From the NCBI GenBank assembly GCA_003022365.1, contig PXOU01000018.1, positions 11,900-75,899 on the forward strand: DNA of 64,000 nt, written 5' to 3'. A program made the position numbers and the translations under genes. This document shows positions 60,241 through 61,260 of this stretch, one piece after another. Within the stretch, counting starts at the first letter, position 1. Each line of letters opens with the position of its first letter. Source of the stretch: Candidatus Saccharibacteria bacterium QS_5_54_17 (lineage in GTDB: Bacteria; Patescibacteriota; Saccharimonadia; QS-5-54-17). A model generated the notes under the pieces. That model made no database searches, was not told the DNA's origin, and saw only the letters and a program-made list of their open reading frames with translations.

Positions 60241-61260
60241 TTATTCGTTCAGGGCGTAGGTTGCTTTCGCTACGCGCTTAAATTGATCCTTCCCTTGTAA
60301 GTTTAATATAATTGTCGTCGGTTTTACATGGCGTTGCGTTAACACCCGTTTTATGATCTCGTCACGGTGTAGTGGCGACTCCTGTCTGAGAATGCCGGCG
60401 ATCACGTCCGCCACCGTACCGGCGCTAAAGCCCCACTCGTTCAGTGCGTAAATGCCCCGCCCGACTAATACAAACCGGTCATCTTTGATGAGTTCATTGT
60501 GAATCGCCTGGGTGGTCACGTTTTTCCGCTTAAAGTCGGATTGTTTAATTTCTTCGGCAATTTCATTGAAGTGCATCGGCGTTTGGTTGCGCTGGAGGAT
60601 GACGAAAATTTTGTCCCGGATGCTCTTGGGGTTAACTTGCGACCAGGTTTCCAGTCCCCATTTGCCGTCCAGATGCGTTAATCCTTTCACCGAACGGGCT
60701 AAGCCGTGGAGATGGTGTGCTTCCCAGGCGGAAAAATGGTTATGGAGGGTGGTCAGGTCGATGGGCTCGTTGAGCTTGTGGACGGTCTTGAGTAGATCAT
60801 CCCGGTGCTGGGCGAGGGTTTTGTGATCGTGGTGGGCGTGTAAAAACATGCTGTGATGGAAAAAATCGTTTTCGGGGATGACGGTAATGTCGGGTACCAG
60901 GTGGGCTAAGAAGTTGACGTGGGCGTGCTGGTCGGTTTCCAGGTGCCGGGATATTTCATGCAAGGGCGCGATCCGTCCCAACTCTTCCAGCCCGTTGACC
61001 AAATGCTCACGCAGCGCTTGCAACTGATCCTGCTCCATCTGCTGCAGGCGCAACAAGGTATGTTTCTCGATCTGCCTGACCCGCTCCCGGGTAATACCCA
61101 GTATACTGCCGATCTCTTCCAGCGTCTCCCGGCGCCCTTCCAAACCGAACCGGCGCCGAATGATCTCTCGTTCGCGATCCTTATCCACCGTATCCAGTAT
61201 GTCGGTTGCGAGTTGTTGGATATCGGGTTTTGCTACATCAGCCGTGGCCGTTGTTTCCAT
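60241..61260 (-). CDS. DNA-binding protein: N-terminal sigma-70 region-4 HTH plus two HARE-HTH-like winged helices
   Basis: Region-4 signature [31 protein letters not shown]. Two C-terminal …[17 protein letters not shown] / …[13 protein letters not shown] segments resembling the RpoE-delta N-terminal domain. Confidence 0.65.
   Translation of the reverse strand: [339 protein letters not shown]

Follow-up and report, generated by a model that had tools for sequence, protein, structure and literature searches.

A non-sigma protein family of the candidate phyla radiation that joins a sigma-70 region 4 to four tandem winged helices

What might be the function of a protein that carries the promoter-reading domain of a primary sigma factor at its N-terminus and no other part of a sigma factor? 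The question is raised by a gene on the minus strand of a 64,000-nucleotide stretch of contig PXOU01000018.1 from Candidatus Saccharibacteria bacterium QS_5_54_17 (the whole stretch is referred to here as the window, and all positions are given within it). The 339 amino acid product, here called the sigma4-WH protein (WH for winged helix), begins with a sigma-70 region 4 and continues with four homologous winged helices of the HARE-HTH type. It is neither a sigma factor nor the delta subunit of RNA polymerase (RNAP). It is an ordinary member of a large protein family found in the candidate phyla radiation (CPR), or Patescibacteria, whose genes are in most loci followed by one encoding a membrane-anchored ATPase of the type IV coupling protein (T4CP) kind, or by the membrane part of it. 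We tentatively favour a housekeeping role for the protein at promoters or RNAP, and weigh this against several alternatives below.

A primary-sigma region 4 without the rest of a sigma factor

The product of the gene is 100% identical to BRC19_02795, a hypothetical protein of Candidatus Saccharibacteria bacterium QS_5_54_17. An earlier note on this DNA had placed an open reading frame (ORF) here and quoted three peptides from it; the ORF is present, with the peptides at residues 28-72, 260-276 and 327-339. The gene and its parts are as follows.

60241..61260, minus strand: sigma4-WH gene, sigma-70 region 4 plus four HARE-HTH-type winged helices; complete ORF with an ATG start, 339 amino acids
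61033..61224, minus strand: sigma-70 region 4 domain (regions 4.1-4.2, primary-sigma type), residues 13-76; from Pfam, PDB profile and Foldseek
61066..61092, minus strand: recognition helix TRERVRQIE, residues 57-65
60832..61032, minus strand: WH1, residues 77-143, acidic and least conserved; from AlphaFold2, hhalign and charges
60637..60831, minus strand: WH2, residues 144-208, ending in KWGLETW; from hhalign
60424..60636, minus strand: WH3, residues 209-279, canonical HARE-HTH, most conserved and most basic; from Pfam
60244..60423, minus strand: WH4, residues 280-339, HARE-HTH-like and basic; from hhalign, with a borderline DUF3320 match

At its N-terminus the protein has a true region 4, as the earlier note had read it, and this domain is of the primary-sigma type. 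Pfam Sigma70_r4 matches residues 28-73 with 50.5 bits (E = 1.5e-13; gathering score 24.1) and, when PDB sequences were searched with the family profile, region 4 of SigA, RpoD and RpoS provided the sole matches (E ~1e-12). An AlphaFold2 (AF2) model of the whole protein (predicted local distance difference test score, pLDDT, 83.7; predicted template modelling score, pTM, 0.68) superposes on sigmaA region 4 in Foldseek with a root mean square deviation of 0.9-2 Å and 40-51% identity. Foldseek alignments were also obtained to chimeras of sigmaA region 4 with the RNAP beta-flap tip; these span 95 columns in the case of 8d5v, with a small gain in template modelling (TM) score.

In its N-terminal 65 residues the protein shares with RpoD/SigA both the fold and the motifs RFGL, TLEE(I/V)G and TRER(V/I)RQIE. 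The recognition helix differs by one conservative change (V for I) from the TRERIRQIE of S. aureus SigA and of two saccharibacterial RpoD proteins. R60, R62 and Q63 of this helix are invariant in an alignment of 52 family sequences with a mean identity of 38%, and in the same alignment conservation reaches 90% or more at T57, R58 and E59. The residues of the T57-E65 helix are those that we take to contact the -35 element in sigma70 and Taq sigmaA (structures of the 1ku7 type). Region 4.1 of the family is conserved as strongly as this DNA-reading helix.

Beyond region 4 the protein departs from RpoD/SigA: the domain is N-terminal and regions 1.2, 2 and 3 are absent, so that sigma-type core binding, DNA melting and reading of the -10 element are not to be expected of it. 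Pfam finds no match to Sigma70_r2 at E <= 1 and none to Sigma70_r3 in the 339-residue protein, and NCBIfam likewise finds no region 2 or 3. The sigma matches that NCBIfam does report (RpoD, RpoS and MzaA models) cover only the last ~70 residues of the models and lie far under their cut-offs, whilst precomputed PF04539 labels on two homologues (P0027 and P0051) are isolated and not reproduced across the family. A family hidden Markov model (HMM) aligns with 65 genuine sigma factors over HMM positions 6-82 only (70-81 bits), profiles of WH1-4 have no significant match among the same 65 proteins, and in the AF2 model winged helices occupy the stretch that regions 2 and 3 would need to fill. Together, the Pfam and NCBIfam searches, the family and sub-domain HMMs and the AF2 model rule out cryptic regions 2 and 3, which the earlier note had likewise called absent. 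Lacking these regions, the protein is not a sigma factor, and the idea that it might be one is refuted computationally.

Four tandem winged helices

The C-terminal half had been described in the earlier note as two winged helices resembling the HARE-HTH domain. The type stands, on Pfam and on a Foldseek match to delta, whereas the number has to be revised to four on the evidence of AF2 and hhalign. Pfam HARE-HTH (PF05066) matches residues 215-276, within WH3, with 33.4 bits (E = 6e-8; gathering score 25.9), and the domain was found by Pfam in all 25 family members scanned (best E = 1.9e-16). WH4 falls below the Pfam threshold for HARE-HTH and gives a DUF3320 match over residues 281-308 at 24.9 bits (cut-off 25). 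Comparison of the units with one another by hhalign relates WH3 to WH4 with a probability of 96% (E = 1.5e-9), WH2 to WH4 with 94% and WH2 to WH3 with 92.5%, and WH1 to WH2 and WH4 with 74-76%; the HARE-HTH status of WH1, WH2 and WH4 is assigned by this hhalign homology only. When residues 77-339 were re-modelled in AF2 with a more diverse alignment (pLDDT 94.7, pTM 0.83), four consecutive helix-strand-helix-helix-strand-strand units were obtained, and the winged-helix folds that the earlier note had proposed to look for by structure prediction are thus present. Residues 77-339 are four homologous repeats of the HARE-HTH type, and the supposed linker of residues 77-208 is in fact two degenerate copies.

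In Foldseek, one WH unit superposes on the N-domain of S. aureus RNAP delta (8x6g_E) with a probability of 1.00 and a target-normalised TM-score of 0.63. The alignment of WH2 to delta 2krc is weak (E = 0.5), and the KWGLETW that closes WH2 is of the same type as the WGLRSW that closes the delta N-domain. The array as a whole matches other tandem winged-helix arrays, namely the C-terminus of SelB (E = 8e-6), UFL1/DDRGK1, RPC62, Dcc1 and ScpB.

The domains differ in charge and conservation. Averaged over the family, region 4 carries a charge of +4.5, WH1 -1.4, WH2 0, WH3 +5.5 and WH4 +3.9, and it is WH3 and WH4 that are the most conserved domains. The window copy (WH1 -7, WH4 +4) is more acidic than the family average, which may reflect its source organism. 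The extent of the 8d5v alignment hints that the first helix of WH1 (residues 78-94) may lie near the place taken by the RNAP flap-tip helix on sigma region 4; were this so, the flap-binding groove would be filled intramolecularly.

The protein is also distinct from delta. The RNAP delta equivalog model TIGR04567 matches residues 214-277 with 32 bits against a cut-off of 42, and the polyanionic D/E-rich C-terminal tail is absent, the protein ending inside the basic WH4. A score below the equivalog cut-off, the missing acidic tail and the presence of four winged helices and a region 4 show that it is no delta subunit. The HARE-HTH winged helix is common to it and to Bacillota delta (RpoE), but delta has one winged helix and a polyanionic tail, whereas the sigma4-WH protein has four, a basic C-terminus and an added region 4, and comes from another phylum. 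The delta subunit is dispensable, unlike the counterpart of the sigma4-WH protein in S. epibionticum (see below), which is essential. An association of the sigma4-WH protein with RNAP is predicted, from the homology of its domains. HARE-HTH domains reportedly also occur in bacterial proteins that join features of the RNA polymerase alpha-subunit and of sigma factors (an observation said to be that of Aravind and Iyer in 2012).

A family of the CPR and its genomic setting

The earlier note had asked how widely this architecture is distributed. It is not a one-off fusion: the protein belongs to a large and strongly conserved CPR/Patescibacteria family that is already in databases, of which the window copy is an unexceptional representative. 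At least 7,999 of the 8,000 candidates from a word-indexed search have E <= 0.001. The 120 homologues listed are 337-375 amino acids long, are 53-88% identical to the query over 96-100% of its length and have the same architecture; the names given to homologues in their source databases include 'sigma factor-like helix-turn-helix DNA-binding protein' and, wrongly, 'RNA polymerase delta subunit'. In an exhaustive search of representatives, E <= 1e-30 was reached by at least 564 clusters (50% identity), almost all of them 330-380 amino acids long. Pfam finds no alpha-CTD or other added domain in the window protein or in ten longer family members; these variants have the same two Pfam domains, the exception being the 659-residue P0173, which is fused to SecF at its N-terminus. 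Since secD/secF lie directly upstream of the sigma4-WH gene in several Parcubacteria-type loci (L011-L013 and L018), this fusion is probably a gene-calling read-through.

In a scan of GTDB (one genome per GTDB species), using a TRERVRQIE pattern that also matches every primary sigma, all 16 full-length matches among those listed come from CPR/Patescibacteria or from unclassified metagenome-assembled genomes (MAGs). They include Saccharibacteria, Peregrinibacteria, Parcubacteria, Doudnabacteria, Kaiserbacteria and MAGs labelled as unclassified Patescibacteria or simply 'bacterium', as well as one named genome, Nanosynbacter sp. TM7-087. Judged among the matches listed, the family is likely to be absent outside the CPR. 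Candidate relatives in Verrucomicrobiaceae (L054) and Eiseniibacteriota (L069) were rejected, the partial matches being to ordinary sigma factors. One homologue (P0106, locus L001) lies on a 1.18 Mb Joint Genome Institute (JGI) contig, Ga0196958_10000001, that NCBI labels 'Verrucomicrobiae bacterium', yet its gene order (dprA/topA/sigma4-WH/ATPase) is of the Saccharibacteria type; the label is probably a taxonomic mislabel.

Information on a counterpart in S. epibionticum comes from the tables of a transposon insertion sequencing (Tn-seq) study (Wang et al. 2023, PMC10633639 Tables S1/S2). SEML1_0294, annotated there as 'RpoS', is 1,050 bp long, with PF04545 at residues 27-72 and PF05066 at residues 225-283. 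It was parsed into one 'tri-helical' and three 'winged' domains, with residues 6-155 merged into one, and the ECOD template for the matching domain is B. subtilis delta, 7f75_L (PMC10633639). The gene lies directly upstream of SEML1_0293 (TrwB_AAD_bind), with topA two and dprA four genes further upstream (PMC10633639), and thus agrees with the window gene in length class, Pfam coordinates and synteny. As the SEML1_0294 sequence is absent from the supplements, it is from architecture and synteny that we infer it to be the ortholog. The tables mark SEML1_0294 both as a core family and as enriched in Patescibacteria, and it scored ES/ES/ES in Tn-seq (essential at all three time points), with insertions falling from 24 in the input DNA to 1, 1 and 2; SEML1_0293 scored NE/NE/NE (non-essential), with 82 insertions in the input and 87, 120 and 110 thereafter, although its read counts drop from 5817 to 1372 in the course of the passages (PMC10633639). 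For S. epibionticum a single complete sigma factor is listed, RpoD, and neither SEML1_0294 nor SEML1_0293 is discussed in the main text of the study (PMC10633639). The essentiality of this apparent counterpart speaks for a housekeeping function and against an ordinary regulator. SEML1_0293 is the only T4CP-like protein by Pfam in the S. epibionticum list, in which a separate, essential FtsK is present; redundancy among T4CPs was considered as the cause of the mismatch in essentiality and rejected, since there is a single such protein.

The neighbourhood of the gene in the window comprises the following features.

61293..61321, minus strand: sigmaA-type promoter TTGACA-17-TATAAT, perfect consensus (12/12 matches)
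57511..60228, minus strand: gene for a membrane-anchored T4CP-like ATPase of 905 amino acids, starting 12 nt after the stop codon of the sigma4-WH gene
61726..63939, minus strand: topA (type I topoisomerase), the upstream gene
61406..61582, strand unassigned: cluster of palindromes like repetitive extragenic palindromic (REP) elements, ATCCTGAA-N5-TTCAGGAT-GACA, between topA and the promoter

The -10 hexamer of the promoter ends 32 nt upstream of the ATG. Most of the CPR loci have a similar consensus promoter in front of the homologous gene, so that a -35 element readable by a region 4 of this kind exists there. The upstream gene is topA in all nine Saccharibacteria-type loci examined, and secDF, leuS or typA elsewhere.

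Downstream, the arrangement is more constant. In 16 of 19 related loci, spread across CPR classes, the next gene lies on the same strand and encodes a T4CP-like ATPase or its N-terminal membrane part, the pair being conserved in Saccharibacteria, Parcubacteria, Doudnabacteria and Kaiserbacteria and broken in the remaining three loci; in the Saccharibacteria loci read, the gap within the pair is 0-55 nt. In Parcubacteria-type loci (L011, L012, L013 and L018) the downstream gene is split into one for the membrane part (~415-530 amino acids) and one for the ATPase (~575-630 amino acids), and in others (L014, L015 and L019) only the membrane part follows the sigma4-WH gene, succeeded by yceG/mltG. 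As the membrane part follows even where the ATPase does not, it is the most constant partner. No paralogue of the sigma4-WH gene or of the ATPase gene is found within the window.

The 905-residue ATPase consists, in order, of hydrophobic N-terminal segments, a region equivalent to DUF8128 (a label taken from precomputed Pfam matches of homologues), a P-loop domain of the TrwB/VirD4/HerA type (residues ~399-722) and a Q/N/K-rich tail. It thus has both the membrane anchor and the TrwB-type P-loop NTPase that characterise a T4CP. Pfam matches are to TrwB_AAD_bind (33.9 bits against 20.5) and TraG-D_C (22.2 against 22), NCBIfam T4CP models all score far under their cut-offs (44.9 against 366, for example), and the N-terminal 400 amino acids give no informative Pfam or PDB match. 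The tail (residues ~800-905, positions 57511-57820) is a long low-complexity stretch rich in Q, N, K and R that contains NNQANNAQAQNNNNNNYNGQQKQQNGQKARQQ. Neither VirB4 nor a relaxase is encoded in the flanks of those loci that have annotated genes; no search for virB4 was made in the remainder of the window. The ATPase aligns with phrog_5156 along its whole length (E = 1.3e-79). Homologues 21-26% identical over 70-79% of its length are found in large Bacillus phages (L084 and L085): gp156 of phage G (L084) adjoins the VirB-like gp155, and the SPO1-like gp27.4 of phage Goe10 (L085) adjoins a 'replication-relaxation' protein and lies near an actin-like protein.

The wider status of such ATPases has been surveyed: 5,713 VirD4-like T4CPs were counted in 2,918 patescibacterial genomes, only 148 of them near virB4 (PMC12102498). 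According to the same study, the copy of S. epibionticum is non-essential and exaptation for another function 'cannot be ruled out'; a sigma4-WH neighbour is not mentioned there (PMC12102498). Our literature searches found no functional study of the sigma4-WH family.

Repeats surround the locus. The core of the REP-like palindromes, TTCAGGATGACA, occurs in 38 copies in the 64 kb (0.22 expected), in intergenic clusters of two or three (at 866-1004, 9884-10090, 39438-39534, 56630-56774 and 61406-61528, for example), and the strand of the palindromes appears to follow that of the flanking genes. It is absent from all 83 comparison loci searched. The palindromes are specific to this genome or lineage and so cannot be a conserved target of the sigma4-WH protein; a tie between the two was rejected on this ground, and they are probably unrelated to it. 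Low-complexity direct repeats that are purine-rich on the minus strand (of the AGCAAG/AGTAAG/GGGAG type; 61621-61749 and 56547-56890) border the topA/sigma4-WH/ATPase block on both sides.

What the protein may do

The reading that we prefer, held tentatively, is that the sigma4-WH protein is a CPR-specific housekeeping factor, not a sigma, which binds DNA in association with promoters or RNAP and cooperates in addition with the ATPase. Two considerations favour a role of this kind: a region 4 of primary-sigma grade, 4.1 included, has been kept across a deep radiation, and in S. epibionticum, whose genome has a single complete sigma factor and very few regulators, the apparent counterpart is essential. 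The N-terminal region 4 would bind -35 hexamers resembling TTGACA and possibly the beta-flap tip of RNAP, as sigma region 4 does. WH3 and WH4, being basic and highly conserved, might make extra DNA contacts or delta-like contacts with RNAP, whilst the neutral or acidic and less conserved WH1 and WH2 could form a rigid spacer or a module for protein contacts. The protein would be made from its own strong consensus promoter and co-transcribed with the T4CP-like ATPase, with which it would probably also cooperate in tethering DNA or handing it on; its essential job would be independent of the ATPase. Binding to the -35 element, binding to the flap or RNAP and partnership with the ATPase are all steps that we infer. 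A functional analogy can be drawn with RbpA and CarD of the Actinomycetota and GrgA of Chlamydia, to which the sigma4-WH protein has no relationship in sequence or fold. These factors are restricted to their clades, essential in at least some species, and bind RNAP or sigma together with promoter DNA.

A number of points weigh against this reading. Binding to RNAP or to promoters is a prediction from sequence, and region 4 of sigmaA already occupies the flap and the -35 element, so that a second copy would have to compete with it or act at a different step. The strongest comparative signal is the pairing with the membrane ATPase, which points to a membrane-linked process. The likeness to delta is weak in sequence, both by TIGR04567 (32 against 42 bits) and against delta in the PDB (E = 0.5), and the acidic tail, to which delta owes its activity, is missing; tandem winged-helix arrays elsewhere also bind RNA (SelB) or scaffold proteins (UFL1, RPC62, ScpB). 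The orthology of SEML1_0294 is drawn from architecture and synteny and not from sequence, and its essentiality could be indirect, if, for example, loss of the protein de-repressed a toxic partner.

The pairing gives most weight to an alternative that we regard as somewhat unlikely but a serious contender, in which the protein is a DNA adaptor or specificity subunit of the co-encoded ATPase, its five helix-turn-helix (HTH) and WH domains delivering DNA to the hexameric motor or tethering it there. The process served could lie in the transfer, uptake or export of DNA or in the handling of the chromosome, and the protein would then resemble TraM, TrwA or the 'replication-relaxation' proteins that act with TraD, TrwB or VirD4. 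The same-strand pair recurs across deep CPR lineages with the membrane part as its most constant element, dprA and topA lie nearby, and the ATPase matches not only TrwB_AAD_bind but also TraG-D_C, the 'TraM recognition site'. In Patescibacteria, T4CPs hardly ever lie close to virB4 and may have been exapted (PMC12102498), and the distant phage homologues of the ATPase adjoin a gene that is VirB4-like or encodes a replication-relaxation DNA-binding protein. As in the TraD-TraM, TrwB-TrwA and T4CP/'replication-relaxation' pairs, a gene for an HTH/WH protein stands beside one for a TrwB/VirD4-type membrane ATPase. Here, however, there is no relaxase, oriT-like feature or VirB4 beside the pair, and it is the DNA-binding partner that is essential and the ATPase that is not, with no T4CP paralogue detected in S. 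epibionticum. Because the ATPase is non-essential, an adaptor role cannot be the whole function. The pair is, moreover, broken in three of the 19 loci, and an adaptor leaves unexplained why an intact -35 recognition helix has been retained across the whole radiation.

It is unlikely, though still to be weighed, that the protein works independently of RNAP as a nucleoid-associated protein or global repressor, placing its five HTH modules on TTGACA-like and adjacent DNA and organising or silencing that DNA, its own promoter included, by competing with the holoenzyme at the -35 element. It is known that region 4 domains bind -35 DNA in isolation (the crystal structure 1ku7 is among the Foldseek matches), three of the domains are basic and of a DNA-binding type, and the strong promoter is what would be expected of an abundant protein; the gene is essential, belongs to a core family and in Saccharibacteria neighbours topA. 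Pure DNA binding would not require region 4.1, which in sigma factors mainly makes flap and core contacts, yet this region is equally conserved in the family. Occupation of all -35 elements would be deleterious, and no oligomerisation module is evident.

A more specific proposal seems rather improbable to us: a CPR-specific general transcription factor or dissociable RNAP subunit, in which a free-standing second region 4 would dock on the beta-flap, the -35 element or both, and the rigid four-WH arm would read upstream DNA or tether promoters or RNAP to a membrane motor derived from a T4CP. If true, organisms with only one sigma factor would have a physical link between transcription and a machine at the membrane that handles DNA. 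That the explanation lies outside those listed here we consider improbable.

A module of anti-phage defence or of a mobile element is very improbable. HARE-HTH, sigma-like and HerA/T4CP-like proteins do recur in BREX, Dnd, MZA and MADS, there are partial PADLOC matches (to MzaA and PglW in the region 4 part, and to mad8, HerA and DndH in the P-loop domain), and the full-length match of the ATPase to phrog_5156 might be read in the same way. The PADLOC matches, however, cover single generic domains only, and for the WH array no homologue turned up among phages; a defence or phage origin was rejected on these grounds. The pair is a single-copy core family set among housekeeping genes (topA, secDF, leuS, yceG) throughout the CPR, the sigma4-WH gene is essential, GC content shows no anomaly apart from the intergenic repeats, and in the 19 loci examined there is no patchy strain-level presence and no location in a defence island. 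Least credible of all is a genuine alternative sigma factor, for which the matches of region 4 to RpoS/RpoD models and the 'RpoS' that PROKKA assigned to SEML1_0294 can be quoted but from which the lack of region 2 (which binds core, recognises the -10 element and melts DNA) and of region 3, the HMM comparison, the modelled winged helices and the position of region 4 at the wrong end of the protein take away almost everything.

The known family closest to the window protein is that typified by SEML1_0294, with full-length homology (53-100% to the 120 listed homologues), agreement in architecture, length and synteny, and no difference of substance. Both the family and its architecture have been catalogued before, the family is known to be CPR-enriched and stands in a published table of essential genes, and the fusion is not new in itself. 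The four-repeat anatomy, the near-universal pairing with an orphan T4CP/DUF8128 gene and the contrast between this pairing and the essentiality of the two genes appear to be undescribed in the available literature.

The value of these observations lies in the family, not in the window copy. Bacterial diversity consists in large part of CPR/Patescibacteria, which have tiny genomes and very few regulators, and the family is a strong candidate for a missing lineage-specific part of their basic transcription or DNA-handling machinery. It would also offer a partner for, and a handle on, the orphan T4CP-like ATPases of thousands of patescibacterial genomes, whose role is an open question (PMC12102498). 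Saccharibacteria are now genetically tractable, and the hypothesis is thus directly testable.

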